A stretch of 32,000 nt of DNA, taken from assembly GCA_001761425.1 (NCBI GenBank), contig CP012986.1, positions 810,001-842,000 of the forward strand. Reading direction: 5' to 3'. The notes below the pieces were generated by a model. It saw only the letters and a program-made list of their open reading frames with translations, made no database searches and had not been told where the DNA came from. Both the position numbers and the translations under genes were made by a program. The DNA is from Candidatus Saccharimonadota bacterium (lineage in GTDB: Archaea; Nanohalarchaeota; Nanosalinia; Nanosalinales; Nanosalinaceae). Positions 1 to 32,000 of the stretch are shown in pieces. Every line of letters starts with the position of its first letter. Within the stretch, counting starts at the first letter, position 1.

Positions 1-266
1 TCATCTGCTTTCAGGTTAAAGTCAAGCACCACGAGGATATCCTTCTGCTCCAGCTTCTCTCTATCAGCTTCTTCGAGATGGTAAGCTCTTTCCTCAGGGA
101 TCGTTACGAGATCTGCTTCCCGTCCTCTCTCTTTTTCAAGTATCTTTGAGATGATCACGGCACTTGAAGTCCCGTCCATATCCCAGTGATGGATGATTTC
201 GACTTGGTCTTGCTCCGAAACATTCCGGAGAAAATCTAGTGCAGGGTCTAAGTTTTCCTGTTCCAT
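1..266 (-). CDS. DHH-family phosphoesterase (RecJ/GAN-like), N-terminal part only; the gene runs off the left edge
   Basis: A reverse-strand ATG at 264-266 opens MEQENLDPALDFLRNVSEQDQVEIIHHWDMDGTSSAVIISKILEKERGR... and stays open to position 1. 'HHWDMDGTSSA' matches DHH motif I (H-x-D-x-DG). It is absent from the ORF track because no stop lies in the window. Confidence 0.6.
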   Translation of the reverse strand, partial: MEQENLDPALDFLRNVSEQDQVEIIHHWDMDGTSSAVIISKILEKERGREADLVTIPEERAYHLEEADREKLEQKDILVVLDFNLKAD

Positions 267-324
267 ACATAATCACGGTTCAGCGAATGTTTTTAACCGA
301 CCGGTCTCAAAGAAAAAGACCTGT

Positions 325-3300
325 CTAGGCCTTCGGCTCTGAGAACCGGAAAATGGTTTTGAACTCTCTGAACTCGACCTCGCCTCCGTATTCAAGGTCT
401 TCACCGCTGAAACCAACTGACTCAACGTTCACCCTGCTCTCGATCATATCCGAATACTTCTCCAGGACATCGGACTCGCCTTCAAACGAAAGCCCAACGC
501 TGTCCTCTACTTCAAGGCCTTCATCCTTCCTCTTTTGCTGGATGGCACGGATAACCTCCGCTACAAAGGCCTCTTCCTCGATCTTCTCAGTCATGATCAA
601 GTCAAGGTACAGGTTGCCTCTGGAGAACTCGAGCTGGCTGACTCCTTCCGTTGTCTCCTGCCTGATCTCGACATCATCTTCTGTGACATCGTAGCCGTCG
701 ATCTCGATCTCTCCAAGCTCCTGGAGCTGTTTCACCTGGTCTGTGTCAAGCTCCTCGATCAGATCAGCGACTTTCTCCGCATCACCGCCGAACTTGGGGC
801 CAAGCTCCGGATAACTCGGCTCCGCTACAGGCTTCGAGGCTACTTCACCGTACTCAACGGATTTGACGTTCGCCATATCTTCGATCAACGGTTTAAAGGC
901 CTCAAGCTCATCCTCAAGGCCTTCAGCAGATACAATCAGTCTCTGGGCCGGCCAGCGAAGGTTGTACTCTTCTTTGTCTCTGATCTTGTTCGCTTTCTCG
1001 ACTATTTCTCTGGCTATCTCCATCTTTTCCTCAAGGCCTTCGTCCATCATTTCTTCATCTGGTTCAGGGTATGGTTCCATGTGTACTGATTCTTCCTGGC
1101 CCTGGATATCGTGATAGACCTTTTCCGTTACGAAAGGTGCGAAAGGCGCGAGCAAAAAGTTCACACGCTCGATAACCGAGGCCAGAGTCCATTTCGCTGC
1201 CTCGTCGCCGTTCTTGACTCTTTCACGGACCTTCTTGATATACCAGCGAGAGATATCCTCCAGTATGAAATCCTCGATATCCCTCGTTATCTCATGGAAA
1301 AAGGCCTCATCCATTTTCTCCGGTGCTTCCGCGTTCAGAGAGTTGGCCTTGGAGAGTATCCACCTGTCCTCTACCTCAAGTTTTTCAGGCCTCTCCACTT
1401 CTCCTTCAAGATAGGTATCAAGGAACTCTTTAGTGTTCCAGTACACTGAGAAGAGCCTGTAAATCTCATTTTCTATCTCGTCTTCATCATAGTTCTTCTG
1501 CTCCCACGCAGGCGCAAGACGAAGCTGGTAGAACCTTGGAAGATCCGCACCGAACTTCTCGACCTGTTCAGCCGGATCCACAACGTTTCCAAGCGACTTG
1601 GACATCTTCTCGCCTTCCGCATCAAGAACGTAGCCCTGGAACAGTACTTTCTCGTAAGGAGCCTCGTCGAACCCAAGGATTCCTGTAAACATGAGCGAGT
1701 AGAACCATCCCCGGATCTGATCTGAAGCTTCAGTAATGAAGTCCATCGGCCACATGTCCTCGAACGGTTTTTCTTCAAACGGGTAATGCAGGGAAGCGAA
1801 CGGAGCGATACCCGAGTCAAACCAGACATCGAAGATATCTGGAATTCTTTCATATTCTCCGCCGCAGCCACATTCCCAGGAAATATCATCCACGACGTGT
1901 TTGTGAGGGTCGAACTCTTCTGGTAACTCTCCGATTTTTTCCTCAAGCTGTTCGAAGCTCCCGATTATCTCCTTTTCGCCACACTCATCACAGATCCAGA
2001 TTGGGATCGGGATTCCCCAGTAGTTCTGCCTGGAAATACACCAGTCAGGGCTTTCTGAGACAAAGTTATGGAAACGCTTCTGCGCCGACTCAGGAATCCA
2101 GTCCACTGTTTCGTTTTCCTCCAACATCCTCTGTTTAACCTCTTCATTTTCGATGAACCACTGATCTGCGGCTCTGTAAATCAGTTCTGTTTTACAGCGC
2201 CAGCAGTGAGGATACTCGTGCTTGAATTTCTCGTTGTAGAAAAGAAGGCCTTTCTCATCCAGAAGATCGACTATCTCCGGATCAACGTCTAAAACATTTT
2301 CACCTTCAAGTTCTCCTGCTTCCTCGGTGTAGTATCCTTCGCTGTCGAGCGGTGAGAAAACCGGTAGTCCGAGAGGCCTTGTCTCCTCGTAATCTTCCGG
2401 TCCATGCCCTGTCGCCGCATGGACGAGGCCTGTACCGTCTTCCAGTGTTACAAGCTCTTCGGAGTTGTGGACTCGGTGTACTCCGTTCTCCTCGTCCAGT
2501 TCCTGCTGTCTTGGAATCTCGTCGATAAAAGGAGTCCTGTATTTGAGGCCTTTCAGGTCTGAACCGATCATGGTTCGTTCGATTGTGTAGTCCTCTTCCT
2601 CTAGGCCTTTCTTGGCCATGACTCGCTCTACGAGCTGTTCTGCTATAATTAGTTTTTCTTCTTCGGCTTCTACTACTGCGTACTGGTAGTCTGGGTGTGT
2701 AAAGACTGCCATGTTTGATGGGATGGTCCATGGGGTTGTGGTCCAGATTACAAGTTTTTCCTCCCGGTTTTCCAGCGGGAATTTTGCGAATACTGCGATA
2801 TCCTCGATTTCCTGGTATTCATCCGTTACCTCGTATCCTGAAAGAGAAGTTTGACAGCGAGGACACCAGTGAATCGGCTTCCTACCCTCGTAGAGAAGGT
2901 CCTGTTCATCCGTCTTCTCCAGAAGCCACCAGGCTGTCTCGATGTATTCTTTATCGAAGGTCATGTAAGGATCTTCAAAGTCCTGCCAGATAGCCAGATC
3001 TTCCATGACTGTCTGCCAGTCGTCCTTTGCCGAAGTAGCTCTTTTTTTACATTCTTCGATGAACTTTTTCGCGGAAATCGAGTCTCCAATCTCGTTTTTA
3101 TCCTCGATTCCAAGATGTTCTTCCGTCGCCAACTCATTCGGAAGTCCGTGTGTGTCGAATCCTGCCTGATCGTGTACGTCATAACCTTGCATCTGCTTGA
3201 AGCGGAGCATCACGTCCTTGATAACTTTTCCCTGCATGTGCCCGACGTGCGGAGAACCGTTCAGGTACGGAGGTCCGTCGATAAGGAAGAAAGGCTCGTT

Positions 3301-3396
3301 TCCCTCCGTTGATTCACGTACTTTCTGTTTTATGTTGTTGTCTTTCCAGTGTTGAGAAACTTCTGTTTCCAGTTTTTCTGGACTGTAATCGGTCAT
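325..3396 (-). CDS. ileS: Isoleucine--tRNA ligase
   Basis: 1023 aa. It has a class I HIGH-type motif 'PHVGHMQG', a KMSKS motif 'EKMSKSLGN', and 'DWCISRQNYWGIPIPIW', which is typical of IleRS. The size fits archaeal IleRS. Confidence 0.95.
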   Translation of the reverse strand: MTDYSPEKLETEVSQHWKDNNIKQKVRESTEGNEPFFLIDGPPYLNGSPHVGHMQGKVIKDVMLRFKQMQGYDVHDQAGFDTHGLPNELATEEHLGIEDKNEIGDSISAKKFIEECKKRATSAKDDWQTVMEDLAIWQDFEDPYMTFDKEYIETAWWLLEKTDEQDLLYEGRKPIHWCPRCQTSLSGYEVTDEYQEIEDIAVFAKFPLENREEKLVIWTTTPWTIPSNMAVFTHPDYQYAVVEAEEEKLIIAEQLVERVMAKKGLEEEDYTIERTMIGSDLKGLKYRTPFIDEIPRQQELDEENGVHRVHNSEELVTLEDGTGLVHAATGHGPEDYEETRPLGLPVFSPLDSEGYYTEEAGELEGENVLDVDPEIVDLLDEKGLLFYNEKFKHEYPHCWRCKTELIYRAADQWFIENEEVKQRMLEENETVDWIPESAQKRFHNFVSESPDWCISRQNYWGIPIPIWICDECGEKEIIGSFEQLEEKIGELPEEFDPHKHVVDDISWECGCGGEYERIPDIFDVWFDSGIAPFASLHYPFEEKPFEDMWPMDFITEASDQIRGWFYSLMFTGILGFDEAPYEKVLFQGYVLDAEGEKMSKSLGNVVDPAEQVEKFGADLPRFYQLRLAPAWEQKNYDEDEIENEIYRLFSVYWNTKEFLDTYLEGEVERPEKLEVEDRWILSKANSLNAEAPEKMDEAFFHEITRDIEDFILEDISRWYIKKVRERVKNGDEAAKWTLASVIERVNFLLAPFAPFVTEKVYHDIQGQEESVHMEPYPEPDEEMMDEGLEEKMEIAREIVEKANKIRDKEEYNLRWPAQRLIVSAEGLEDELEAFKPLIEDMANVKSVEYGEVASKPVAEPSYPELGPKFGGDAEKVADLIEELDTDQVKQLQELGEIEIDGYDVTEDDVEIRQETTEGVSQLEFSRGNLYLDLIMTEKIEEEAFVAEVIRAIQQKRKDEGLEVEDSVGLSFEGESDVLEKYSDMIESRVNVESVGFSGEDLEYGGEVEFREFKTIFRFSEPKA

Positions 3397-8066: not shown

Positions 8067-8432
8067 ATGTCAAGTAAAGAAGAAAAGTTGAACGAGCCAC
8101 TGGACGATCTCGATAGTGTCCAGGGGATCAAAGGAGCAGCAGTGGTACGAAGAGACGGTCTGTTAATAGCTTCCAACCTTGGCCAGGACATTGATGATGA
8201 CCAGGTTGGTGCAATGACGGCTTCTACTGTCGGTTCTGGTGAGACAGCTAGTGAAGCATTGAACATGGGAGACGTGGACGAAGTAAGTATAGAAGCAGCT
8301 AACGGAAAACTTATCGCCACAGGTGCAGGAGACGAAGGAATACTCGCAATACTAACAGAAAGCGACGTCAACATGGGCCTAGTAAAAGTAGAAATGAAAG
8401 ATGCCACAGAAAAAATCAAAAAGGTGCTTTAA
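8067..8432 (+). CDS. Roadblock/LC7 (MglB-like) domain protein
   Basis: 'LDSVQGIKGAAVVRRDGLLIASNL...DEVSIEAANGKLIATGAGDEGILAILTE' is the typical Roadblock/LC7 pattern. The antisense ORF 8048-8419 is a shadow. Confidence 0.85.
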   Translation: MSSKEEKLNEPLDDLDSVQGIKGAAVVRRDGLLIASNLGQDIDDDQVGAMTASTVGSGETASEALNMGDVDEVSIEAANGKLIATGAGDEGILAILTESDVNMGLVKVEMKDATEKIKKVL

Positions 8433-8714
8433 ATGGACTACGAAGAAGTAGCCCGGGAGATAATCGGAAAACAGGAAGATACCATCGGCATGATCGCAAC
8501 AAGAAAAGCCGAACAGGTCGAAAACATCGAGGTAGACGGAGAAGAAATCGTTTTCAAGGAAGAAGCGACTATCGAAGATATCAAGGCCTTGATGGAACAG
8601 TTCAAGAAGATCCAGGGCCAGGGAGCTGTAGGAATCGCAAGAAAAGCAGTTTCAGGCCTTGAAGACGATATCGATATAAATCTACCGGAGGAACTTCAGC
8701 CGGACTCAGAGTAA
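8433..8714 (+). CDS. Hypothetical acidic protein, translationally coupled to the Roadblock gene
   Basis: Its ATG directly abuts the upstream TAA (8430-8432). 93 aa, acidic, no recognised motif. Confidence 0.7.
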   Translation: MDYEEVAREIIGKQEDTIGMIATRKAEQVENIEVDGEEIVFKEEATIEDIKALMEQFKKIQGQGAVGIARKAVSGLEDDIDINLPEELQPDSE

Positions 8715-8730
8715 AAAAGAGAAAAAAGAA

Positions 8731-8737
8731 TTTTTTT
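8731..8737 (+). terminator. Oligo-T tract downstream of the Roadblock operon
   Basis: A T7 run lies 17 nt after the stop at 8712-8714. Archaeal termination commonly uses oligo-T. Confidence 0.45.
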
Positions 8738-8872
8738 CAAGGCCTTCTTAACCGTTTTCGAACTTTCCTCTAACTCAGCTTATCCTCCATCTCCCCAATT
8801 CTTTGAAACAGAAAAATATCCGGGACTCAGGCCTGTTTCGGTGGAGAAAATAAAAACAGGCATATGTAATAT

Positions 8873-8884
8873 ATCTATATAAAG
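8873..8884 (+). promoter_or_regulatory. TATA-box-like element (atctatataaag)
   Basis: A strong TATA-like sequence is centred about 25 nt upstream of the ATG at 8901. This is the geometry expected for a leaderless archaeal mRNA. Confidence 0.4.
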
Positions 8885-8900
8885 CCTGAAGGCAAGCTGG

Positions 8901-9166
8901 ATGTTAACCCTGATGCGTTCCTTCATTAATCTCTAGCTGCTCTTCTAGGAGGTTTTCTGGAAAGTATAGCAGTTTCAGGCCTTTCAGTTCCCCTGTTCCT
9001 GGGCTTCGGTACTTTAACGGGTTCTCTGGCTGTTTTCCTGTATTACAGGCAGAAAGGAGATAGCTGGATGTGTTCGGGGATGCATCTTTTCGCCGCAGCT
9101 TTTGTTCCGGTTCTGGCTCTAAGCTTTGGAGTTTTGACCAAGATAGCAGAGATTTTCGTGAAATAA
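8901..9166 (+). pseudogene. Possible frameshifted small (about 85 aa) multi-TM membrane protein gene
   Basis: ATG 8901 reads MLTLMRSFINL and then hits a stop at 8934. A different frame is open from 8930 to the TAA at 9164-9166. It encodes a clearly hydrophobic sequence (SLAALLGGFLESIAVSGLSVPLFLGFGTLTGSLAVFLYYRQKGDSWMCSGMHLFAAAFVPVLALSFGVLTKIAEIFVK) but has no ATG/GTG/TTG before 9068. Confidence 0.25.
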
Positions 9167-9271
9167 TTTTTCTGCCCACAGAAAATCTGGAATACTTCAA
9201 GGTTATCTTATCGGTCCGGAAGGCCTGTCTCTAAGAGGGGAAAAAGTGTAGAAAGCAGGGCCTGGAATAAA

Positions 9272-9278
9272 GTTTTTT
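9272..9278 (+). terminator. Oligo-T tract ending the putative 8.9-9.28 kb plus-strand transcript
   Basis: A T7 run sits immediately before the convergent tRNA gene. Confidence 0.35.
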
Positions 9279-9295
9279 TGGAGAGTACGGATGGT

Positions 9296-9385
9296 TCGCC
9301 GGCGCTCGGATTTGAACCGAGGAGGGACGGGTATGTCCCAGCAGATCTCGAATCTGCCGCAATCAGCCAGACTCTGCCACGCCGG
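9296..9385 (-). tRNA. tRNA-Ser (anticodon CGA), type II with a long variable arm; CCA not encoded
   Basis: The reverse complement folds by hand. Acceptor GCCGGCG/CGCCGGC, D stem GCAG/UUGC, anticodon stem GCAGA/UCUGC with loop UUCGAGA (CGA). Variable arm GGGAC-AUACCC-GUCCC, T arm CUCGG-UUCAAAU-CCGAG, discriminator G. Confidence 0.9.
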
Positions 9386-9484
9386 CTAGGCCTTGTGTTT
9401 TTACAAGGAGTTGTGTAATCGTTAAAAGCGGTTTGTTTTCAGCGGTTAACTGTATAAGGTTTTCCGATGTGATAGGTTTTTACG

Positions 9485-10162
9485 ATGGAGTTCAACTCTG
9501 TAGTTTTTGATATGGACGGGGTGATTTTAAACTCGCTTGTCGATCGTGAGGGCTGGAAGTACGAGGCTGTGAACAAGGCCTTGAAGAGCGAGGGCGTTGA
9601 CCCTGAGAGCCTGGATAGGGAGAAGAAGGATTCTCTTCTGGGAGATCAGGGTTATGCTGACTGTGTCAGTACTTCTAAAGAGGTTGGAGTTAATCCGCGG
9701 AAGGTATGGACCGAGGTAGCAGAAAAGACAACTCTGGCACGTGAGAAACAGCTTGAGAACGGCCAGTTCGAGCTTTACGAAGGTGCGAGAGAGAGTATCA
9801 GGGCTCTGCATGACAGAGATATTAAGATGGGTATCATCAGCAATGCTCCTGAAATGGCTGTCGAGCTGACAATCGAACACTTCGACTTAAAGCGGTTTTT
9901 CAAGTTTTACGCAGGAGTGAGAAACTTCGAGGACCTGAGAGCGCGCAAGCCTCATCCTAACCATCTGGAGATGGCGAAGGCTGAACTAAAACGTGATCCG
10001 TTCGTATACATCGGTGACCACAGAAGCGATCTTGTCGCAGCTCAGCGTGCTAACATGAGTTCTATCTGGGTGAAGAGGAATAAGGCCTCGATGGACGTGG
10101 ACCCAGATTTCACTGTCAAAGATATTTCAAGAATCAGGGAGATCGTACTGGAAAACACGTGA
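9485..10162 (+). CDS. HAD-superfamily hydrolase (subfamily IA, phosphoglycolate-phosphatase-like)
   Basis: Motif I 'VVFDMDGVILNS', motif II 'GIISNAP', motif III 'RKPHP', motif IV 'YIGDHRSDLVAA'. Confidence 0.85.
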   Translation: MEFNSVVFDMDGVILNSLVDREGWKYEAVNKALKSEGVDPESLDREKKDSLLGDQGYADCVSTSKEVGVNPRKVWTEVAEKTTLAREKQLENGQFELYEGARESIRALHDRDIKMGIISNAPEMAVELTIEHFDLKRFFKFYAGVRNFEDLRARKPHPNHLEMAKAELKRDPFVYIGDHRSDLVAAQRANMSSIWVKRNKASMDVDPDFTVKDISRIREIVLENT

Positions 10163-10212
10163 TTGTTGTCATCGAATAGTGTAAAAAGTTTTACTGTATT
10201 ATTTACTGTTAT

Positions 10213-10869
10213 ATGTCTGCATCATCTGAAAGCCAGGGTTCTGCAAATCTACCGGAGCTCTTCCAAGGCCTGAGAAGGAGTCCAGAGGAAGATGAAAGCT
10301 CTGACGACGCAGATTCAGAGGAGGATTCCAAGACTGAGGAGCTGGAGATCTATGATTTTGCAGAGGAGACAGATTATTCGACTGGCGATCTGAGGCCTGC
10401 TTATGATGTTCTTGAGGGAAGTTACTGGATCGATGAGGAGAACGAAAACGTTGTCGTTGCCGACTCCTCCTGGAACCAGATTGAGGAGATCCTGGAACAG
10501 GAGGCCTCAGAAGAGACAGATGAGGACGGAGGTTGGTATGACCGTGTCAGCAGTTACCTTATGGATCACGACCAGAAGTACGTGGGGGGAGGCCTGATCG
10601 GTATGGGTTCAGGCCTTTTATCCGGAGCTTTGGGTTACGGCCTTGCTGCGGATGTTCTACTGACAGGAGGTGCCGGAGCCTTTGGCTGGGGCCTGGGAGG
10701 AATGATCGGTGAGTACTTTTTTGGCGAAGAAGAGAAAGAAGAGTCGGAGGACGATGCAGGTTACGACAGCGAGTTAGCAGAGTACTCGGACTGGGATGTA
10801 GAGGTCCTCAAAATGCGGGAGTGCGGAGAGGCACTCAGGAAACAGAGGCAGGAAAATCGGTGGGCCTGA
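10213..10869 (+). CDS. Hypothetical acidic protein with a Gly-rich hydrophobic segment
   Basis: 218 aa. 'GGGLIGMGSGLLSGALGYGLAADVLLTGGAGAFGWGLGGMIGEYFF' is flanked by E/D-rich regions. ATG start. Confidence 0.7.
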   Translation: MSASSESQGSANLPELFQGLRRSPEEDESSDDADSEEDSKTEELEIYDFAEETDYSTGDLRPAYDVLEGSYWIDEENENVVVADSSWNQIEEILEQEASEETDEDGGWYDRVSSYLMDHDQKYVGGGLIGMGSGLLSGALGYGLAADVLLTGGAGAFGWGLGGMIGEYFFGEEEKEESEDDAGYDSELAEYSDWDVEVLKMRECGEALRKQRQENRWA

Positions 10870-10908
10870 TGTTTGTTCTTAAAAACTTCACTTTTTCATT
10901 CAGTTTTT

Positions 10909-11898
10909 ATGACAGATGAAACCTGTAGTAAGTGCGACCAGGATGCGGTTATAAACAGAGAATACGAGGGCCGTAGCCTCTGCAGGAAACATTTCAGTAT
11001 AGACGTGAACAAGCAGGTGAAACAGACCGTTAGAGAGGGAGACCTCGTTAACTCCGGCGATACAATCGCTGTAGGCCTCTCAGGAGGGAAGGACTCGGCC
11101 GTCCTTCTCGAACAGTTGGTGGATATATTCGGCGAGAGGCCTGATATCGAGATCGTCGGCGTCTCAGTGCATGAAGGTATCGATGAGTACAGGGATGAGT
11201 CTATATCTGCTGCTGAAGAACTCTGCGATGATCTAGGTGTAGAATTACATGTCGGAAGGTACGAGGACTACTACGACCTGAAAATGGATGATGTGGCGGA
11301 TGCTGGAGCGCGCGGAAACTGTACTTACTGCGGGATCTTCCGCAGAGACCTTCTCAACAAGTTATGCCGTGAAGTGGATGCAGACAAGATGGCTATAGGC
11401 CATAACTTGGATGATGAAGCCCAAAGCATCATGATGAACCATATCAAAGGCGATATGAAACGGCTGTCACGTATAGGGCCTAAAGACGATCCAGCAGATC
11501 ACGAGATGTTCGTCGAGAGGATAAAGCCTCTGCGTGATGTGATGGAAAAGGAGATAGCATTGTACTCTCGTATCCATGACCTTGGGGTTATCGATAGATG
11601 TCCACACGTACAGGAATCGACTTTGAGGCCTATGGTAAAGAGCTTTCTGAATAAGCTGGAGTCCCAGATGCCTGGAATTAAGTATTCGATCGTTTCACAG
11701 GGAAGAGAGATTTCAGACATGGTCGAGGAGGAGATCGACTGGGAACAGGAGGATTCGATCCAGAGATGTGAAAGATGCGGGGAACCATGTTCTGGAGGCG
11801 TCTGCAGGAAATGCCAGCTCTTGAAAGATATCAAAAAGGCTGCTGATGAGTCAGAGGACCACGATTTCGAATACAAAGAGGAGAAAGAGACTATCTGA
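10909..11898 (+). CDS. ncsA: tRNA 2-thiolation PP-loop ATPase (NcsA/Ncs6/TtuA family)
   Basis: N-terminal zinc finger 'CSKCDQ...CRKH', PP-loop 'GLSGGKDSAVLL', C-terminal 'CERCGEPCSGGVCRKCQ'. The ORF track starts at TTG 10873. ATG 10909 (MTDETCSKC) is preferred. Confidence 0.8.
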   Translation: MTDETCSKCDQDAVINREYEGRSLCRKHFSIDVNKQVKQTVREGDLVNSGDTIAVGLSGGKDSAVLLEQLVDIFGERPDIEIVGVSVHEGIDEYRDESISAAEELCDDLGVELHVGRYEDYYDLKMDDVADAGARGNCTYCGIFRRDLLNKLCREVDADKMAIGHNLDDEAQSIMMNHIKGDMKRLSRIGPKDDPADHEMFVERIKPLRDVMEKEIALYSRIHDLGVIDRCPHVQESTLRPMVKSFLNKLESQMPGIKYSIVSQGREISDMVEEEIDWEQEDSIQRCERCGEPCSGGVCRKCQLLKDIKKAADESEDHDFEYKEEKETI

Positions 11899-14657: not shown

Positions 14658-14658
14658 T

Positions 14659-18002: not shown

Positions 18003-19886
18003 ATGAATAGACGTATTTTGGCATCATTTATGGTAATAGGCCTTGTGGCTGCCGGTGCTGGATTGAGCACGACCGCTCTGTTTAATGATACAGAGACAAG
18101 TGCAGATAACCAGTTTACGGCAGGTGAGCTTGATCTCAGGGTTGACTGGGAGGAGAGCTACAATGGCGAACATGTTGAGACTCAGGAGTTGACCAATGAT
18201 CCTGGCACGATCTTCGACTTTGAGGATCTGAAGCCAGGTGATTACGGTGAGGCGACTGTGAGCCTTCATCTTGAGGATAATCCTGGCTGGATCTGGATGA
18301 AGTTGAACCAGACCTCCAACTGGGATAATGCATGTACAGAACCTGAGCATAATGCTGAGGGTACATGTGGAAGTGAAGGAGAACTTGATGAGGAACTTGA
18401 GTTCACGATCTGGAGCGACGATGGAGACAATGAGCTTCAGGAGGATGAGAAAGTGATCTTTGAAGGAACAGCAGAGGAACTTGAAGAAAAGAGCACTTCA
18501 GAGGGAATCCTTCTAGATGGAAACTCTTCCACTGAAGAGACAGAGCCTTTCCCAGGCGCAGAGACAGGTTATATCGGAGTTAAGTGGAATTTACCTCTTG
18601 ATACAGGAAACAGGATCCAGGGAGACTCTGTATCCTACGATGTGACCTTCTACACAGAGCAGAGAAGGCACAACGACAATCCAGAGAATCCGTGGAGTGA
18701 CGAACCAGAAGAGAAGCCTGGTGACGGAAATGAGTCTGACGGAGAGAAAAAGAATGAGTCAGAAAGTTTCTACCAGGTTGATCTTGTAGGCGGAGATCCT
18801 ATAGAGAACCTCTCTGAGTCCACATATCACTCTGAGGGAAGGATGCAGAGATACATCCACGGGAAGCCGGGAGACGCTATCTCCAAGGAGAGCGAATCCG
18901 ATCAGGTCAAGACAGGGACAGGAAGCGTAGACTGCGTGGACAGCGAGCCATTCACAGTCAACAAGAAACAAGACACAGCGACAGTAGAGTTTGAAGTCCT
19001 GAACAAGACACCAGAATGTGGAACAGGGACAGAGCTATCGCTAGTAAGCTACGAGAAACCATACCCTGGCTGGATCGCGGAGAGAGCAGGAGAACAGGAA
19101 ATCTTCGATAGCACAAACCACCGATTTGATCCAGGAAACCATTCGCTAACCGTCGCAATCCCAGATATCAACAACGAAACATCTGAGGATTCCGAGGAAG
19201 AACCTAAGGACTCTGACGGAGATGAATCTGAAGGTTCCGATGCCTATGTAGCGACCCAGGGATCAGAGACTGTTGAGATCAGCCCTCTCAAAGGCAACAT
19301 GACAGTCCAGGAACTCTACGATTACAGGCTTCCATCACGTTTTGACAACGAGGTCGATAACGAGGCCTTGAACGGAGCTACTTATCCTGAGGATGGGCCT
19401 TACTATGGTTCAGCCGGTACCGGTAATCTTCAACAGGCTGATACTTCCATCATGTTCCTCTACGATGGGCCTAATGGCCTGAGTTTCGTAGTGGTACATG
19501 AGGGAGGTGCTTCTGACGACGGAGGTTCAGCAACCTTTGAGATCTCTAACCTTTCCGAGTCAGGTCAGTGGGTAGTGAAAGACGATCTCTACTTCAGAGA
19601 TGACGGACAGAAAGCGAACAGTAACTACGACATCTGGGACGTCAACTCCAGCACCCATACCATTGACTGGACATGGGGCGGAGGAGGTGAAGACGGAGGT
19701 GCTTTCCAGCCAGTTGGAGAGGACTTCAGCTTCACAATTGACCCAGCCTTCAACGAAGAATCTGAACTCTACGAACAGTTCTACAACGGAGATGTTGAAG
19801 ACTGGCAGGTCCTTTCAGGAGACATGAACAACCCTGAAAGAACTTCACTCAACCTTACACAGGAAGTAACGGTTGAAGCTCAGTAA
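18003..19886 (+). CDS. Secreted TasA/camelysin (peptidase M73)-like protein with a SipW-type signal peptide and a roughly 400-aa C-terminal extension
   Basis: 'IGLVAAGAGLSTTALFNDTETSADNQFTAGELDL', 'LKPGDYGEATVSL' and 'IQGDSVSYDVTFYTEQRRHN' parallel, from memory, B. subtilis TasA 'AAFNDIKSKDATFASGTLDL', 'LKPGD' and 'YQGNSIKLQFSFEATQ'. It has many N-x-S/T sequons. Confidence 0.85.
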   Translation: MNRRILASFMVIGLVAAGAGLSTTALFNDTETSADNQFTAGELDLRVDWEESYNGEHVETQELTNDPGTIFDFEDLKPGDYGEATVSLHLEDNPGWIWMKLNQTSNWDNACTEPEHNAEGTCGSEGELDEELEFTIWSDDGDNELQEDEKVIFEGTAEELEEKSTSEGILLDGNSSTEETEPFPGAETGYIGVKWNLPLDTGNRIQGDSVSYDVTFYTEQRRHNDNPENPWSDEPEEKPGDGNESDGEKKNESESFYQVDLVGGDPIENLSESTYHSEGRMQRYIHGKPGDAISKESESDQVKTGTGSVDCVDSEPFTVNKKQDTATVEFEVLNKTPECGTGTELSLVSYEKPYPGWIAERAGEQEIFDSTNHRFDPGNHSLTVAIPDINNETSEDSEEEPKDSDGDESEGSDAYVATQGSETVEISPLKGNMTVQELYDYRLPSRFDNEVDNEALNGATYPEDGPYYGSAGTGNLQQADTSIMFLYDGPNGLSFVVVHEGGASDDGGSATFEISNLSESGQWVVKDDLYFRDDGQKANSNYDIWDVNSSTHTIDWTWGGGGEDGGAFQPVGEDFSFTIDPAFNEESELYEQFYNGDVEDWQVLSGDMNNPERTSLNLTQEVTVEAQ

Positions 19887-19908
19887 AAATTCATTTCAAG
19901 AAGGTAAA

Positions 19909-19950
19909 GGAGGAGAAAAAACTCCTCCCCACTCCTTCTCACATTTTTTT
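19909..19950 (+). terminator. Hairpin (GGAGGAG-aaaaaa-CTCCTCC) followed by a T7 run; candidate partial terminator/attenuator
   Basis: A perfect 7-bp stem at 19909-19928 and TTTTTTT at 19944-19950, between the TasA-like stop (19886) and the signal peptidase ATG (19969). Confidence 0.4.
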
Positions 19951-19968
19951 GAACAGAGGACGGGAAAG

Positions 19969-20463
19969 ATGAAAAAGAAAAACACGGCAATCTGGATCGC
20001 AGTACTAATCCTTCTGACACCTTTCATAGCCTACGGATTAGGGCCTTACACAGACCTCTACGATTCCTTCACTGTTTCATCAGGCTCCATGGAGCCCGAC
20101 ATCCCTGAAAACGCTGTAATATTCACACAGCCGGTAAGGCCTGAAGAGATCAGTAGAAACGATGTAATCACTTTCAGAGATACTTCTGATCTTTATACTA
20201 CGCACAGAGTAGTAGATGTAGTCTCCAGTGAGGAAGGCCTCAGGTTCCAGACTAAAGGCGATGCTAACGAAGATGCTGATCCAGGCCTTGTTGAAGAGGA
20301 AGAAGTTGTTGGAAAAGTTTTCCTGTCTATACCATTCATAGGGGGTATCATCTATTTTGCCAGAACTCCTACAGGTATTTTCCTGATGATCGGGCTGCCT
20401 GCTTTAGGCCTTTTACTGTGGGAATTATACGTTTTCATACGGGAAGTCAGTGATTTTTCATAG
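19969..20463 (+). CDS. sipW: Signal peptidase I, SipW/Sec11 (S26B) type
   Basis: N-terminal TM, catalytic Ser box 'SSGSMEPDI', His box 'YTTHRVVDV', 'TKGDANEDADPG', and a C-terminal TM. The track start at TTG 19873 overlaps the upstream gene; ATG 19969 (MKKKNTAIW) is preferred. Confidence 0.85.
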   Translation: MKKKNTAIWIAVLILLTPFIAYGLGPYTDLYDSFTVSSGSMEPDIPENAVIFTQPVRPEEISRNDVITFRDTSDLYTTHRVVDVVSSEEGLRFQTKGDANEDADPGLVEEEEVVGKVFLSIPFIGGIIYFARTPTGIFLMIGLPALGLLLWELYVFIREVSDFS

Positions 20464-20525
20464 GTACTGTAGTATATCTGTTTTTCTGCAACAATGGGTA
20501 TTTGTTCACAGGAATAACTGTATCC

Positions 20526-22007
20526 ATGGATATCGATTACGATGATTCAGCCAAGTTTCCAGTGAGGGAGCTTGGCCTGGCGTATCTGGACAGGGCTACT
20601 GATATCCACCCTCACACAAATTATACTGACGGAACTCAGGGCGTCCAGGATTCTATAGAGGAGGCCAGAAGCCACGGTTTATGGGAGAAAGGTGCCATCG
20701 AACACGCTAACCGTATTGATGAAGATATAGTGCATGTTACAGGTTTTCTGACAGATTTCAGCGACAATAAACAGGTCTACAGCTCCAGAGATGTCTTCCC
20801 GCTAAAGTACGAAAACTTAGAGGAGATTGCCGGAGATGACATGGATACCACGTTGCTGAACGATGCGGACAGGGAAAAACTAGGTGAAGATGTAGAGACT
20901 CTTAATAATATCCAGGAACGTGGTGAGGCCTCTTACGAGGATCTGGTGAATTACAAGATGGTTATACCTCACGGCGTGGAACTTGACTATAACCCTGCTA
21001 TAGAGCCAGTCGTAAACGGAGACGAGAGGGAAGCGGTCGAGAGCTACGAACAGGAGATCCTGGATTTCCTCAGGGATGCAGAAAGCCTTAACTCCGGGTT
21101 TAACTATGCTTTATTAAGTTCTCACTATGTCAATACTCCTTTCAGGCCTAGATACGTGAAAAAAGAAGGGCTTTTCGAGGACATGAGTTTGGATGAGAGA
21201 AAAGAGGTCCTTGAGGCCTACAGGGATAAAGAGATCTACAAGATCGATTCTCTAGCAGAGAAGATGGGTAAAATGGAGGTTCCTGCGGTCTCTGGCGAGC
21301 TGATGAGGCCTGAAGAGATGGATGAACTTGAAGAGTTTATCTACGGCCAGGAGGCTGCTGTAGAAAGTGCTGTCAGCGAACAGGTGAGTAATGAACAGAT
21401 CAGGGAACTGACTGATGAGTCACTGGATATTGAGAGGCCTGGTGTACTGGCTGTGGGAGCACATCCTACTCTGATCGAGAGAAACGAGGAGTTGATGGAT
21501 GTGTTCCGTGAGGATGAAGGCCTTGATACCAGGGAGGATATCCGGGATGAACTTGAGTCTTTTATGTATGATACAGCTCTGGAAGGCCTTGATGGTACTG
21601 ATCTTTCATCTGTTCTGGATGAGACTGTCTCGACCGGGGATGTGGATGAGGTGCTTTCGGAAGAGGATTTCCAGGCGATTTATCCTGCTGAAAGCCTACT
21701 TGATTTTTACAGTCCTATGGTGGATGCTGCGGACAGACAGGATAATTTCATCTTTGAGGTAAACGGTAAGGGAGTGGAGAGGCAGGTACCTTCTGTTTTC
21801 TGGTACATGCTTGATGAGAAAGTTTTCGGTTCCGACGCTCACAGGCCTATGGAACAGCCAGAAAGAAGCCAGATTTACTCTGAATCAGATCTTCCCGGCC
21901 ACACGGTTTTACTGAGCGAAAAATGGCTGGAACAGCTAGAGGACAGAGAAGAAGCATCGGGCGAAGACCTGGATAAAGAAATTTCAAGAGATCGAGCCAC
22001 GGTCTAG
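20526..22007 (+). CDS. PHP-domain metal-dependent phosphoesterase (HisJ-like) with large acidic insertions
   Basis: The PHP motifs occur in order: 'DIHPHTNYTDG', 'AIEHAN', 'HGVELDY', 'LLSSHYV', 'GAHPT', 'GSDAHRP'. ATG 20526 is preferred over TTG 20502. Confidence 0.7.
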   Translation: MDIDYDDSAKFPVRELGLAYLDRATDIHPHTNYTDGTQGVQDSIEEARSHGLWEKGAIEHANRIDEDIVHVTGFLTDFSDNKQVYSSRDVFPLKYENLEEIAGDDMDTTLLNDADREKLGEDVETLNNIQERGEASYEDLVNYKMVIPHGVELDYNPAIEPVVNGDEREAVESYEQEILDFLRDAESLNSGFNYALLSSHYVNTPFRPRYVKKEGLFEDMSLDERKEVLEAYRDKEIYKIDSLAEKMGKMEVPAVSGELMRPEEMDELEEFIYGQEAAVESAVSEQVSNEQIRELTDESLDIERPGVLAVGAHPTLIERNEELMDVFREDEGLDTREDIRDELESFMYDTALEGLDGTDLSSVLDETVSTGDVDEVLSEEDFQAIYPAESLLDFYSPMVDAADRQDNFIFEVNGKGVERQVPSVFWYMLDEKVFGSDAHRPMEQPERSQIYSESDLPGHTVLLSEKWLEQLEDREEASGEDLDKEISRDRATV

Positions 22008-22082
22008 GAAGTACAGAAAATCTTTCTTAAGACAGACTGCTTATAATCTAAAGTTATATTATTCCTAAACACCGGAAAAAAG

Positions 22083-22090
22083 TTTATATT
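22083..22090 (+). promoter_or_regulatory. TATA-like box (tttatatt)
   Basis: It is centred about 29 nt upstream of ATG 22116. Confidence 0.4.
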
Positions 22091-22115
22091 ACTGCTTTCT
22101 GTATTTTTACGTGTA

Positions 22116-22409
22116 ATGAACCTGAAGAAGTATTTTCTTAACGAGAAGCCTGCTGAGACTCTTGTTATGATCAACAAATCTGACCAAGAAGTATTCAACT
22201 CACTGATTTCTCGCAAAATCGATACTACCTACTCCCATACTGTGGAAATAGTACAGACCCTGGAGAAAGAAGGACTTATAGAGACAGAGAAAGCCGGAAG
22301 GAAAAAAGTCTCCACTCTTACCAGCAAAGGCAGGGAATGCGCAGAAGCACTTGAGGATTTCCTAGAGGCAATAGATTCATCAGGAAAGGAAAAAGAGGTA
22401 AAGGCCTAA
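22116..22409 (+). CDS. Small winged-helix DNA-binding protein (MarR/ArsR-like), paralog A
   Basis: 97 aa. 'ISRKIDTTYSHTVEIVQTLEKEGLIETEKAGRKKVSTLTSKG' shows an HTH plus wing pattern. It is roughly 50% identical by eye to 23337-23678. Confidence 0.75.
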   Translation: MNLKKYFLNEKPAETLVMINKSDQEVFNSLISRKIDTTYSHTVEIVQTLEKEGLIETEKAGRKKVSTLTSKGRECAEALEDFLEAIDSSGKEKEVKA

Positions 22410-22729
22410 TCCTCCATGTAATCTATTCCCTTCTCAAGAAATGCTGACTTGGCTTCTGCCCACTGTATACCAGGATAAAACTCGATTAACTCTTCGTAAA
22501 GATTAATCTGCCACCTGCTGTAGGAGAAAACATCTTCCTGAAGGTCTTCAGGATCTATCCTCGGTATCTCCTCTTCACTGACAGTGTAAAATGCAAGACC
22601 TAATCTATAGGCCTTTGAAACCACTTCGCTGACTTCTTCACCTGTTTCCTCCGAGTAATGGCTGATTCTTTTCACCAGGCCTTGTTTTATGAGGCCTGTA
22701 TCTTTGACTCTATCCTTTCTATCTCTCAT
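22406..22729 (-). CDS. Hypothetical protein, possibly ribbon-helix-helix-like at the N-terminus
   Basis: 107 aa with an ATG start and acidic composition. Its stop overlaps the stop of 22116-22409 (convergent, 4 nt). The RHH assignment rests only on pattern resemblance ('RVKDTGLIKQGLVKRISHYSEETGEEVSEVVSKAYRLGL'). Confidence 0.55.
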   Translation of the reverse strand: MRDRKDRVKDTGLIKQGLVKRISHYSEETGEEVSEVVSKAYRLGLAFYTVSEEEIPRIDPEDLQEDVFSYSRWQINLYEELIEFYPGIQWAEAKSAFLEKGIDYMED

Positions 22730-22879
22730 GGCTACATAAGGGAATCCAAAGAGGTTTAAACCATTTCAAAGGCTCATATAGAAAGGTCATGCTCCGTGTT
22801 TGTTTGTGTATGTTTGGGAAGTTTTGCGTTTATCTGGGGTCATAGGGTATTATTTATCCTTGTGTAGAATTTTGGATTC

Positions 22880-23026
22880 ATGGGAGAGTATACTACTAAT
22901 ATTGGAATCAAGAATGGGCTGTACGAGAGGCTTAAGGAGCGTAAAAGTCCTGGCCAGAGTTTTTCCGGTGTTATAGAGGAAGTACTGATGAAGGCGGAGA
23001 AGTACGATAAACTTGAGGAAAAATAG
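22880..23026 (+). CDS. VapB-like putative antitoxin (archaeal DUF217/PF02697-type pattern), 48 aa
   Basis: MGEYTTNIGIKNGLYERLKERKSPGQSFSGVIEEVLMKAEKYDKLEEK fits the family pattern T-I-x-[IV]-x4-Y-x2-L-x3-K-x4-SFS-x-VI-x2-L, recalled from archaeal homologues. It is below the ORF-track length cut-off. Confidence 0.5.
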   Translation: MGEYTTNIGIKNGLYERLKERKSPGQSFSGVIEEVLMKAEKYDKLEEK

Positions 23027-23336
23027 AGATCAGGAATCGTCGAGGAAAAAATAGTAGGAAAATTTAATGGAGGAATTCGTTTTTCTTTACTCTGATCCAG
23101 CCTTTGAGGCCTTTTATCATCAGTGTGAATCCTATTATTATCAGGAATTTACTGAGTAGACGGGAGATCCCGGACTTTTTCCTGTTTTTTCCTGATTTAC
23201 GTCTGAGAGATTTTTTCATACAGTTCTTCCACCAACTAATCTATGACTTTCCAGGGTATAATCTATTTTCTGTTGGTAGAAGAAGGTGTTGATGCACATG
23301 TATCCGCGTACATAGTAGAGATAGGGTTATCTGTGT

Positions 23337-23678
23337 TCAGAGGGTGTTGTCGCTTAGCTTTGAGCCCTGACTGCTTAGTGAGAGGCCTTCGCTTGCTCCT
23401 TCCTCCTCTTCCTCGAACATTTCCAGCATTTCGATGAACAGGTCTGCGTATCTTTCTCCTTTCTCTGTTAAAGTGAGAATTTTTTTCCTTCCCTGTTTTT
23501 CGCTCTTTATCAGGCCTTCGTCTTCGAGCTGGGAGATTATCTTGACGGCGTGGGCGTAGGTGGTGTCGATTTTGCGGGAGATTATGCTTCCATAGATCTC
23601 TTTGCGTGATTTCCTGATTGTGACCAGGGTCATCACTGGTTTTTCGTTTAGAAAGATTTCTTTCATTTTTTGGTTCAC
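23337..23678 (-). CDS. Small winged-helix DNA-binding protein, paralog B
   Basis: 'FLNEKPVMTLVTIRKSRKEIYGSIISRKIDTTYAHAVKIISQLEDEGLIKSEKQGRKKILTLTEKG' is parallel to paralog A. It starts at GTG 23678 or ATG 23666, and lies 3 nt downstream of the ComF-like gene stop. Confidence 0.75.
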   Translation of the reverse strand: MNQKMKEIFLNEKPVMTLVTIRKSRKEIYGSIISRKIDTTYAHAVKIISQLEDEGLIKSEKQGRKKILTLTEKGERYADLFIEMLEMFEEEEEGASEGLSLSSQGSKLSDNTL

Positions 23679-27124: not shown

Positions 27125-27823
27125 ATGAAGACCACAAAGACTATTCTAGTAGTTCTTGTACTTGCTATAGCCCCAGTACTGTTTTTCACAGCCGGTAACG
27201 GAATTCTGGACAGCAGTAAAGAAGATCACAGTATACAGGGAAGAGAGACTACAAATTTAACAGAGAACAGAGATGAAGACAGAGGAGAGAAGAACCGCTC
27301 CAACAGGCAAAATAATACTTCAGAAACACTGAACGACGATCCCAGCACAGAGATAGATCTTCTGAAAGAGGAAAGAATAAAACCTGTAAAACAGGAGAAA
27401 ACCGCTCAAAAGGCCTTGGACAGCTTCATGGAAAATAGTTCGGAAGCAGCGAAGAAGTTTATTCATCCGGGTACCAGCAGCGTATTCATACTTGAAAGCA
27501 CCGATTCCAAAATACTTACTTTCGTCCAGACCAGCGAGGAAAAGACCAAAATCAACCTGACAGTAGAAGGCCTTGATGGAGAAGCTATCAGAGGAAAACG
27601 TTTTATCAGCCAGAGAAGCGGAGAAGATTCCTTCGATATTTCAGTGAACCTCACAGCTAGCGAGATCGAAGTAATCGGTTTCAGACTTAACGACTCTGTA
27701 AACGTGAAGCTTGAGCAGGAACTTCCTGACAGTATGAAATGGCAGCTGATCTCGGGACCTGTAAAAAATTTGAAAGTCGTGAAACTGGACGATGAGAGGC
27801 CTTTAACCATCAGGCCTGACTGA
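27125..27823 (+). CDS. Hypothetical secreted or membrane-anchored protein
   Basis: The N-terminus 'MKTTKTILVVLVLAIAPVLFFTAGNG' is a signal/anchor. 232 aa. Confidence 0.7.
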   Translation: MKTTKTILVVLVLAIAPVLFFTAGNGILDSSKEDHSIQGRETTNLTENRDEDRGEKNRSNRQNNTSETLNDDPSTEIDLLKEERIKPVKQEKTAQKALDSFMENSSEAAKKFIHPGTSSVFILESTDSKILTFVQTSEEKTKINLTVEGLDGEAIRGKRFISQRSGEDSFDISVNLTASEIEVIGFRLNDSVNVKLEQELPDSMKWQLISGPVKNLKVVKLDDERPLTIRPD

Positions 27824-30626: not shown

Positions 30627-30995
30627 CTATCTAAAGGCCTCATCAAGGCCTTCAACAACATCATTGATGTAATCCTGTTCTACCTCTACATCGGACGAGC
30701 GACTTTCCTCTCCGTACACCTTGACTCTGAAACCTCTTTCACTATTTCTCTCTGAGACGAAGAATTCTCCGGGTTCAAGGCCTGAGTCAAGTATCTGTCG
30801 GTAAGCCTTTTCCGCTGTTTCAGTATCTATCATGCCTTCAAAGCTTCCTGGATACGATTCTTCGGATTCTGCCAGAGGACCTTCTCCAGAGATGAACACT
30901 TCATTTCTGGTAATGAAGCCGTGTTCTGCATCGACCCTGTACCTTGGACCTGTTCCCAGGTCGCTGAAATACTCGATCTCGAATCCTCTACCCAT
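30627..30995 (-). CDS. Hypothetical acidic protein
   Basis: 122 aa with an ATG start and no recognised motif. Confidence 0.6.
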   Translation of the reverse strand: MGRGFEIEYFSDLGTGPRYRVDAEHGFITRNEVFISGEGPLAESEESYPGSFEGMIDTETAEKAYRQILDSGLEPGEFFVSERNSERGFRVKVYGEESRSSDVEVEQDYINDVVEGLDEAFR

Positions 30996-31223
30996 CGTAC
31001 CAAAACGTTGTTACCCAAAAATTATAAAAACAATCTCTCCAGTTTGCCGCCATTATCTAGCTAGCACCCGGAACTACCCGGACAAGGCCTCGAAATGAAA
31101 GAGGTTCAGAAAGACGTTATAGTTCGGCCTATCACTTCTCAGAAAAAGTGAGGAGCTTCTGAAGAAGGCCTCTGGGATCGTCTCCGGTGAACAATAGGCG
31201 AGTTTAAATTATTGGCCAGTTCT

Positions 31224-32000
31224 ATGGGGTTTATGGAGATGCCGGATTCTGTTGAGGGATACAGGCCTTCACGCCAGCAGCTTGCTGTTATCTGTTCAGG
31301 TATCGTGAGCATGGGACTGGAAATCTTGGCAGGTAGAGTGCTTGCACCGAATTTTGGTTCGACTATCTATACCTGGGGATCGATTATAGGTATCTCGATG
31401 CTGGCACTCAGCCTTGGATATCATAGAGGAGGCAAGAGCGCGAAGAAAGCAGATGAAGGCCATCTTGACAGCTTTCTTATCTATACAGCAGTCTATATCG
31501 TGTTCCTGACGGTTATAGGAGAACAGATACTAACTTTGACATCTGCACTGCCAATAGGAGCGAGGTACGCACCATTAATCCCGGTAACACTGCTTTTCGG
31601 GCCTCCGACCTATTTCCTCGGATTCATTAGCCCTTACGCAGTCCAGCTATCGAAAAAAGAGAACAAGGGAGAGGCCTCAGGTCATTTCTACGCAGTAGGG
31701 ACAGCAGGAAGCATCCTGGGAGCATTCGGAACCACCTACCTGTTAATACCGAACTTCGCTGTAAACACGATCTACGTATTGTTTACGGCCATAACTCTTC
31801 TCCCGGTACTGAGAGGCCTTGGAAATCCGAAGACATATCTTTTACCTATTTTTGTTATCTCAGGCCTTCTTCTAAGCGGTTCTGTCTCTGTTCCAGGAAA
31901 TACTGTTTACGAGGACAGTACTGCTTACCAGGAATTGCGTGTGGCGGATGAGGACGGTGTAAGGACTTTGTATCTGGATGGCCAGCCCCAGTCCTCCATG
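31224..32000 (+). CDS. Membrane-fused spermidine-synthase-like protein, N-terminal part; continues past the right edge
   Basis: ATG 31224 stays in frame to position 32000 (259 codons). It has multiple TM segments (LAVICSGIVSMGLEILAGRVL, IYTWGSIIGISMLALSLGY, ...), followed by 'YQELRVADEDGVRTLYLDGQPQS', the start of the spermidine synthase core. Confidence 0.7.
   Translation, partial: MGFMEMPDSVEGYRPSRQQLAVICSGIVSMGLEILAGRVLAPNFGSTIYTWGSIIGISMLALSLGYHRGGKSAKKADEGHLDSFLIYTAVYIVFLTVIGEQILTLTSALPIGARYAPLIPVTLLFGPPTYFLGFISPYAVQLSKKENKGEASGHFYAVGTAGSILGAFGTTYLLIPNFAVNTIYVLFTAITLLPVLRGLGNPKTYLLPIFVISGLLLSGSVSVPGNTVYEDSTAYQELRVADEDGVRTLYLDGQPQSSM

Follow-up and report, generated by a model that had tools for sequence, protein, structure and literature searches.

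The 32,000-bp stretch of DNA analysed here (hereafter, the window) comes from Nanohaloarchaea archaeon SG9, also known as 'Candidatus Nanopetramus SG9', a DPANN archaeon from Atacama halite. Its genes encode strongly acidic proteins, among them an isoleucyl-tRNA synthetase (IleRS) that is 70-87% identical to the IleRS of Nanohaloarchaeota; the window also holds a tRNA-Ser gene and a 5S rRNA gene. The subject of this analysis is the hexamer AGGCCT, which is scattered over all this DNA, genes and intergenic regions included, and which is a highly iterated palindrome, a genome signature of the SG9 lineage, and not a gene, a repeat element or a codon effect. Exact protein matches, among them AOV95128.1 of SG9, placed the window on a single contig of JGI 3300010222 (Ga0136257_100001, 1,125,078 bp; window base 1 is record base 816,553), from which 74 kb, about 7% of the 1.125-Mb genome, were read (window positions -19,449 to +54,315); this sequence contains 308 copies of AGGCCT, or 4.2 per kb. 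The paper that described the SG9 genome is silent on methylation, motifs and palindromes, and a full-text search of a limited library found no report of an AGGCCT excess in nanohaloarchaea.

An earlier note on this DNA had put the number of sites at about 144 and the excess at around 20-fold. The exact count in the window is indeed 144, compared to 6.6 expected from the base composition (G+C content 46.3%), that is, an excess of 21.8-fold and a mean spacing of 221 bp. AGGCCT is the most frequent of all hexamers in the window, and the second-ranked palindromic hexamer, GATATC, reaches only 2.5-fold. As the note had also proposed, about two-thirds of the GGCC tetramers (144 of 210, 69%) sit inside AGGCCT, and 40 of the other 66 deviate from it at one outer base (GGGCCT, 23; TGGCCT, 10; AGGCCA, 4; CGGCCT, 2; AGGCCG, 1). 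The suggested bias of the flanks to R-AGGCCT-Y is equally real: the preceding base is A or G at 74% of the window sites, the following base is T or C at 75%, and RAGGCCTY occurs 79 times versus 2.8±1.6 in dinucleotide-preserving shuffles. When the half-sites of the 308 copies were symmetrised, only a weak dyad-symmetric context emerged (T at -3/-4 and R at -1), with background composition beyond ±4 nt, which indicates that the hexamer is not the core of a longer repeat. The spacing of the sites is not random either: pairs closer than 50 bp number 13 in the window versus 28.3±4.4 under random placement (z=-3.5), and similar deficits are seen at two other loci, L010 (11 versus 23.2±3.8, z=-3.2) and L008 (3 versus 9.9±2.7, z=-2.6).

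Could codon or dipeptide usage, base composition, or a dispersed element resembling a repetitive extragenic palindrome (REP) or a miniature inverted-repeat transposable element (MITE) give rise to such an excess as a by-product? On a gene map built from the open reading frames (ORFs), the tRNA-Ser and the 5S rRNA, 123 sites (85% of those in the window) are coding, with 66 in minus-strand and 57 in plus-strand genes, and 21 lie in the 4.3 kb of non-coding DNA, so that the densities are 4.44 and 4.86 per kb, respectively. All three codon phases are used, as had been claimed: 20 sites are in phase 0 (all Arg-Pro), 40 in phase 1 ([K/E/Q]-Ala-x) and 63 in phase 2 (x-Gly-Leu). The preponderance of phase 2, with Glu-Gly-Leu alone accounting for 25 sites, is what a by-product of dipeptide usage might look like. 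The null models say otherwise. Shuffling synonymous codons within genes (500 shuffles), a procedure that preserves the proteins and a codon usage that is itself inflated by the motif, gave 19.6±3.8 sites (maximum 30; z=27 for the 123 observed), and permuting the order of codons gave 7.9, such that the two nulls are exceeded 6- to 16-fold; in non-coding DNA, the shuffled expectation of 0.5 is exceeded about 40-fold. The overall codon usage is nearly identical in relatives with and without the excess. The excess over the synonymous shuffle, together with a density that is the same in coding as in non-coding DNA, implies that the force acts on the DNA itself, in agreement with the earlier contention that amino acid or codon usage cannot account for it. 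Codon and dipeptide explanations are thus refuted by the shuffle nulls and by the codon usage of the relatives; an element of the REP or MITE type is refuted by the lack of any extended conserved flank and by the location of most sites inside genes; and we give practically no credence to a by-product of any kind. A maximal-order Markov null, which predicts 127 sites (observed/expected ratio, O/E, 1.13), was set aside as circular and uninformative: the sub-words AGGCC, GGCCT and GGCC from which it is computed are nearly all derived from the motif, so that its near-unity ratio is not a valid refutation.

The distribution of the trait among relatives was assessed at the IleRS loci of 35 nanohaloarchaeal genomes and metagenome contigs, each scored for the O/E of AGGCCT. 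The scores are bimodal: 14 loci fall at 15-28 (2.2-5.6 sites per kb), 20 at 0-2.3, and one in between, the enriched share being about 40%. Among the enriched loci is that of Nanosalina sp. VS9-1, a complete genome; Nanosalina J07AB43 and a contig with the name NAR1 are among the non-enriched ones. In a neighbour-joining tree of IleRS, enriched and non-enriched lineages are interleaved, and at least 3-4 switches are needed to account for their arrangement. Within the IleRS gene, many sites occupy the same alignment columns across enriched clades, and the non-enriched sequences have AGGTCT, AGGACT, AGACCT and similar words at these places. The pattern between related lineages is all-or-none, as if one gene or system were either present or absent. 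The sole intermediate locus, L002, is a mosaic: 11 of its 15 sites lie within 3.5 kb (8,096-11,578) over the 5' part of IleRS, and here, unlike over the 3' part, L002 shares 8-10% more nucleotide identity with enriched genomes than with its own sister clade. Judged from these identities, the site-rich patch is a recombination import into an otherwise site-poor genome.

Two observations on this comparison set are worth recording separately. Five non-enriched loci (L148, L149, L151, L162 and L168), selected post hoc, contain no AGGCCT at all versus 8.4 expected in total; some lineages may avoid the word actively, as a restriction system of the StuI type would cause. Another locus (L005, JBLGBK010000005.1), titled 'MAG: Colwellia polaris' (MAG, metagenome-assembled genome), encodes a nanohaloarchaeal IleRS that is 74% identical to that of the window, with matching neighbours, so that this MAG is probably contaminated or mislabelled.

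The strength of the force can be judged from the opportunities that it has used. Among the positions where AGGCCT could be written synonymously, 79%, 70% and 74% (phases 0, 1 and 2) are filled in the enriched lineages versus 13%, 6% and 9% in the non-enriched ones; pooled, the occupancy is 398/542 versus 19/229 (p=8e-68). Beyond this, the peptides that permit the motif (Arg-Pro; [K/E/Q]-Ala-[F/L/S/Y/C/W]; x-Gly-Leu) are 2.0 times commoner per residue in the enriched lineages (p=2e-19); in IleRS, for example, these have Gly-Leu where others have Asp-Leu or Asn-Leu. This doubling shows that the force has altered protein sequences, that is, a force at the level of DNA measurably reshapes the proteome. 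Thus, a directional force on double-stranded DNA has turned nearly every position that tolerates AGGCCT into AGGCCT.

The sites are not only numerous but also maintained. In a close relative of SG9 that is 97.6% identical over 41.5 kb (JGI 3300021446, Ga0224631_1000030, assembled from three records), 174 of the 183 aligned SG9 sites (95.1%) are intact, compared to 87.8% of all hexamers (p=0.0014) and 87.2% of comparison hexamers with four G/C. Divergence inside and outside the motif is 2.3% versus 4.9% at third codon positions, 1.1% versus 3.0% in non-coding DNA and, with both combined, 1.9% versus 4.2% (p=0.008); the rate of change at AGGCCT sites is about half that of neutral positions. The 21 differences at sites between SG9 and its relative are mostly single-base, the commonest being the GGGCCT/AGGCCT exchange (5, plus 2 AGGCCC). 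Sorting these differences into gains and losses was abandoned, since any outgroup with the trait would converge on AGGCCT. In this relative, IleRS was called as two pieces of 617 and 426 aa (L138, 8,001-11,281), which suggests a frameshift or an assembly error.

Near-cognate words, compared between 103 kb of enriched and 100 kb of non-enriched sequence, show where the force bears most heavily. Of the one-base variants, only the outer transition GGGCCT/AGGCCC is clearly in excess, with 76 copies in enriched versus 20 in non-enriched DNA (3.6x). The inner transitions AAGCCT/AGGCTT (70 versus 93) and AGACCT/AGGTCT (70 versus 85) are below background despite 18 times more parent sites, and the inner variants overall stand at 0.73-1.2 times the non-enriched level. 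Hence, the inner bases are efficiently restored or selected, the outer ones less so.

The features mentioned above and below are collected in Table 1. Of the example coordinates of the earlier note, only those of the site beside the tRNA need correction, from 9387-9392 to 9388-9393, which places this site 1 nt from the 5' end of the tRNA. The tRNA and 5S rRNA genes were said to be free of the motif, and they are, yet a density of 4.5 per kb predicts only about 0.9 sites for these 205 nt. Beside the 5S rRNA, the 816-bp stretch 17187-18002 contains no convincing ORF and has no Rfam match; it could harbor an undescribed RNA or a regulatory region. Elsewhere in the window, two paralogous small winged-helix proteins (Pfam WHD_DUF6293/DUF4364) are encoded at 22047-22409 (+) and 23337-23678 (-), with an ORF of the size of a VapB-like antitoxin (22868-23026) and several unannotated small genes between them.

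Table 1. Features of the window and of related loci. Positions are those of the window unless preceded by L and a number, which denotes a fetched locus; CDS, coding sequence
Feature	Position	Strand	Remarks
cas-CRISPR island	-10,450 to -1,500; L016 ~14,600-23,072; L144 2,743-13,000
Isoleucyl-tRNA synthetase (IleRS)	325-3396	-	12 AGGCCT sites; ortholog marker
Polar domain of sites degenerate at one outer base	1344-31599	+	35 [C/G/T]GGCCT vs 5 AGGCC[A/C/G]
Five intergenic sites	8740, 8829, 8977, 9221, 9388		last one 1 nt from tRNA-Ser 5' end
tRNA-Ser(CGA)	9297-9386	-	no site inside
Phase-1 example (xAG-GCC-Txx, Lys/Glu/Gln-Ala-x)	9576-9581	+
Two phase-2 sites (xxA-GGC-CTx, x-Gly-Leu)	10590 and 10611 (10590-10616)	+
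5S rRNA	17072-17186	-	no site inside
Six sites in the non-coding stretch from 5S rRNA to the next CDS	17305, 17395, 17473, 17625, 17805, 17864
Pair of phase-0 sites (AGG-CCT, Arg-Pro) with 15-bp spacing	27797-27817	+	CDS 27125-27823
NgoPII-like restriction-modification (R-M) loci	L170 9,115-11,014; L171 10,001-11,880; L172 2,767-4,764

To the left of the window lies an island made up of a type I cas operon (Cas6, Cas8b, Cas7, Cas5, Cas3, Cas4, Cas1, Cas2) and of a CRISPR array in which the repeat (CTTTCAATTGAACTTTAGAAGTATTAGAAC) occurs 25 times; for this island, the authors of the SG9 genome argued a horizontal acquisition from its GC content. The island contains 11 AGGCCT in 9 kb (1.2 per kb, GC 0.41) versus 4.5-5.4 per kb in both flanks (rate ratio 0.27, p=2e-7): the force has not yet converted this recently imported DNA. 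At the same time, the island is still about 8 times above the compositional expectation (11 versus 1.3), a level that fits slow conversion after arrival. Taken together, the force that creates and keeps AGGCCT is double-strand-symmetric, sequence-specific, switch-like, slow and still active.

A site-rich core genome with a site-poor imported island is also what one would see if AGGCCT were a DNA uptake or recombination tag, methylation-linked or not, that spreads by molecular drive because cells take up or recombine DNA bearing the word in preference to other DNA. Several other observations are compatible with such a tag, namely, the conservation of the sites beyond the neutral expectation, the deficit of closely spaced sites, which suggests diminishing returns, the lineage-specific, all-or-none presence, which resembles the dialects of uptake sequences, and the 3.5-kb site-rich fragment that recombined into the L002 genome; recent work on HIP1 (highly iterated palindrome 1) of cyanobacteria, to which we return below, ties that palindrome to natural transformation. 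The recipient of this fragment, however, is itself a site-poor lineage. A further hint comes from the CRISPR array of SG9 (L144, 11,359-12,996), where 2 of the 23 distinct spacers, one of them duplicated, carry AGGCCT versus about 0.17 expected in some 870 nt, so that the DNA that entered the cell would have been site-rich; the sample is tiny, though, and three SG9 spacers that were searched in viral contigs had no match, so that these searches identified no target virus. The halite virus Ha1987 matches an SG9 spacer. Six bases are, furthermore, short for a specific tag, and known uptake sequences are several times sparser than 4 sites per kb. The sequence read contains no visible competence or uptake system, and none is known in Nanohaloarchaeota. 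On balance, we consider an uptake or recombination tag rather unlikely, albeit worth keeping in view.

The GGCC core of the motif has a history of its own in this phylum. The earlier statement that short palindromes are usually avoided holds here in a more specific form: it is GGCC outside AGGCCT that is avoided throughout the phylum (O/E ~0.5). When both outer bases are non-cognate, GGCC has an O/E of 0.47 in enriched and 0.55 in non-enriched lineages, compared to 1.1-1.2 for the control CCGG, and this phylum-wide avoidance makes the excess of AGGCCT more striking. Searches seeded with a HaeIII-like protein (P0259) and its nanohaloarchaeal homologue (P0361) revealed, in hypersaline data, about 48 clusters of acidic NgoPII/HaeIII-like 5-methylcytosine (m5C) methyltransferases, and the three that were looked up all adjoin an endonuclease of the NgoPII (GGCC) family. 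Two of these loci (L170 and L171) belong to a nanohaloarchaeal MAG, where the R-M genes lie in a defence island, and to a virus-like contig; GGCC is depleted in them about 3.5-fold (10 versus 37 and 17 versus 55 expected; O/E ~0.2-0.3). In the third (L172), GGCC is undepleted (14 versus 17 expected), and the contig is not AGGCCT-rich. GGCC restriction is therefore common nearby, and yet the enriched lineages have four sites with this tetramer per kb, which is most simply read as a sign that AGGCCT is modified there and thereby protected. AGGCCT is a known Type II specificity, that of an N4-methylcytosine (m4C) methyltransferase of Alcanivorax borkumensis SK2 (PMC12128166); in the only nanohaloarchaeal methylome found, that of SVXNc, the motif is GDGCHC, and a second, Dcm-like enzyme is also encoded.

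With these facts in mind, our tentative preference, held at rather less than even confidence, goes to an orphan DNA methyltransferase of StuI specificity (AGGCCT) as the driver in the enriched lineages. Such an enzyme would shield the methylated sites from the GGCC-cutting restriction enzymes that circulate in the community, and the methylated sites could then be favored by methylation-guided or short-patch mismatch correction or, by an alternative route, through homologous recombination that depends on methylation, or through the uptake of marked DNA. Both routes would amount to a ratchet, or a drive resembling gene conversion, as proposed for HIP1, which would make sites from near-cognates and restore mutated inner bases. 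The restriction of excess one-base deviants to the outer positions, a pattern shared with HIP1 and its internal methylase site, is a further indirect hint of a link with methylation.

A number of points weigh against the methyltransferase as the driver. In E. coli, repair of the Vsr type alters the frequencies of words by some tens of percent, and not by a factor of 20. The T-variants, whose depletion such repair predicts, are only mildly low here relative to the non-enriched lineages (AGGTCT/AGACCT, 0.79; AGGCTT/AAGCCT, 0.73), the transversion variants are equally low, and the differences between SG9 and its close relative fall at each of the three half-site positions. The equal density of sites in coding and non-coding DNA and the deficit of close pairs resemble the outcome of selection for a set density more than that of mutational drive alone. 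Finally, no gene for a DNA methyltransferase, vsr or a mismatch glycosylase was found in the 74 kb of SG9 sequence, even beside the cas island, and no NgoPII-like methyltransferase lies on the contigs of SG9, VS9-1 or the close relative among the matches listed. Other searches were similarly unproductive: a six-frame scan of all fetched loci for motifs of m5C and N4/N6 methyltransferases yielded nothing real, and the best 120 matches of a homology search with M.HaeIII were all close bacterial homologues and, accordingly, uninformative for SG9. Two candidates were rejected. The NgoPII-like family is, in the three cases looked up, paired with an endonuclease and located on contigs that are GGCC-depleted or not AGGCCT-rich, and it is not listed on the SG9 contig. 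P0259, the most acidic match of the HaeIII-like query among representatives at 50% identity, comes from a 1-kb contig with 34.5% GC and without AGGCCT. A scan of viral contigs for clustered AGGCCT produced only tandem repeats and non-halophilic viruses; among these, two IMG/VR contigs (L019 and L094; GC 0.36) share similarly spaced clusters of three AGGCCT in about 45 bp, which are unrelated to the nanohaloarchaeal pattern.

Alternatively, AGGCCT might be bound by an abundant dimeric protein of the nucleoid, or one otherwise organising the chromosome, that occurs only in the enriched lineages, the sites being kept for the sake of chromosome structure. The dyad-symmetric context that reaches weakly past the hexamer, the conservation of the sites, the close-pair deficit and the similar density in and between genes would all suit such a protein. 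It does not explain, however, why words containing GGCC are tolerated despite the phylum-wide avoidance of GGCC; a structural role would be expected to reach an integrated island quickly; and repeated gain and loss between close relatives is not obviously expected. As, moreover, no candidate protein was identified, we regard a role in chromosome structure as quite improbable.

One more regularity concerns the sites that are degenerate at one outer base. Within a domain that covers nearly the entire window (Table 1), these sites are strongly polar: the plus strand has 35 [C/G/T]GGCCT and 5 AGGCC[A/C/G] and, in the commonest pair, 23 GGGCCT and no AGGCCC (p=2e-7). The overall bias of 35:5 holds irrespective of the gene strand (12:3 in plus-strand genes, 19:2 in minus-strand genes, 4:0 in non-coding DNA). 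In the flanks of the window, the ratio is 24:31 and the polarity is lost (Fisher p=1.3e-5). It ends near 32 kb, within a gene and with no origin-like feature there, and an explanation by replication strand is unsupported, since four-fold degenerate sites show no reversal of skew at that point. At the VS9-1 locus, degenerate sites show a mild coding-sense bias only. We would not put much weight on the further conjecture, unlikely as it stands, that AGGCCT is the self-DNA mark of an unrecognised, horizontally mobile system of Nanohaloarchaeota, comprising a methyltransferase or reader together with a recombination, uptake or repair part, and spread by biased gene conversion. Were it true, the mark would let host-dependent cells distinguish their own or kindred DNA from that of their haloarchaeal hosts, which is GC-rich, amid GGCC restriction. 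The trait has changed state at least 3-4 times, and the strand-polar decay in the 30-kb domain would be the footprint of a machinery that works on one strand.

How does AGGCCT compare with systems that are already known? A StuI-type R-M system such as that of A. borkumensis SK2 shares the recognition word and demonstrates that the requisite methyltransferases exist, but a full system is expected to lead to avoidance of the site or to a neutral frequency, not to a 20-fold enrichment. The NgoPII/HaeIII-type systems of other nanohaloarchaea and of the virus-like contig act on the GGCC core in the same communities, and their carriers show the opposite phenotype, with GGCC depleted in two of the three looked up and no richness in AGGCCT. 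The Vsr/Dcm repair of E. coli, where CCWGG is enriched and CTWGG depleted, is similar in that repair tied to a methyltransferase raises the frequency of its own palindromic site; its known effect, however, is small, the depletion of T-variants that it predicts is only mild here, as described above, and neither vsr nor an m5C methyltransferase is seen in the sequence read. DNA uptake sequences (the DNA uptake sequence, DUS, of Neisseria and the uptake signal sequence, USS, of Pasteurellaceae) likewise number in the hundreds to thousands in core genomes, with fewer in imported islands; they are used in all reading frames, affect peptide content, form lineage-specific dialects and are kept up by molecular drive. 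They differ in being 9-12 nt long, non-palindromic, present at about one per kb and dependent on a known competence machinery.

The earlier note likened AGGCCT to HIP1, and this analogy holds for the over-representation, the occurrence in all phases and in intergenic DNA, the lack of a longer repeat, the conservation and the deviants at outer positions. HIP1, which reportedly goes back to Robinson in 1995, has been unexplained for 30 years. Like HIP1 (GCGATCGC) and the 'alternate HIPs' of cyanobacteria (Elhai 2015, PMC4390886; Xu et al. 2018, PMC5861425), AGGCCT is a GC-rich palindrome, over-represented at a level that in these systems ranges from 15- to 300-fold, found in every reading frame as well as in intergenic DNA, conserved beyond neutrality, and missing from some related lineages or supplanted by another word there. 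The proposals made to account for HIP1 invoke repair linked to a methyltransferase, the structure of the nucleoid, and the uptake of DNA: Elhai (PMC4390886) noted that its one-base deviants fall at outer positions and that it contains an internal methylase site, correlated such palindromes with a genome-encoded methyltransferase that recognises the palindrome or its core, and put forward a ratchet model of methylation-linked correction, while Xu et al. (PMC5861425) proposed that the sites are kept for chromosome structure. The two motifs also differ. HIP1 is a cyanobacterial octamer found at about one copy per kb, whereas AGGCCT is an archaeal (DPANN) hexamer at about four; no cognate methyltransferase was found for the latter in the 74 kb; and, unlike HIP1, AGGCCT stands against the avoidance of its own GGCC core and is strictly bimodal, with its switches inside one group of related genera.

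Thus, the same kind of phenomenon as HIP1 appears in another domain of life, in 1-Mb genomes with few genes. For practical purposes, the density of sites flags imported DNA, such as the cas island and the 3.5-kb recombination patch, and could improve the binning of nanohaloarchaeal metagenome contigs; the driver can also be tested in the few existing nanohaloarchaeal co-cultures. For HIP1, comparison between carriers and non-carriers is weak because almost all cyanobacteria have it. In nanohaloarchaea, the all-or-none trait flips among close relatives with small genomes, so that its driver should be findable by profiling the presence and absence of genes.

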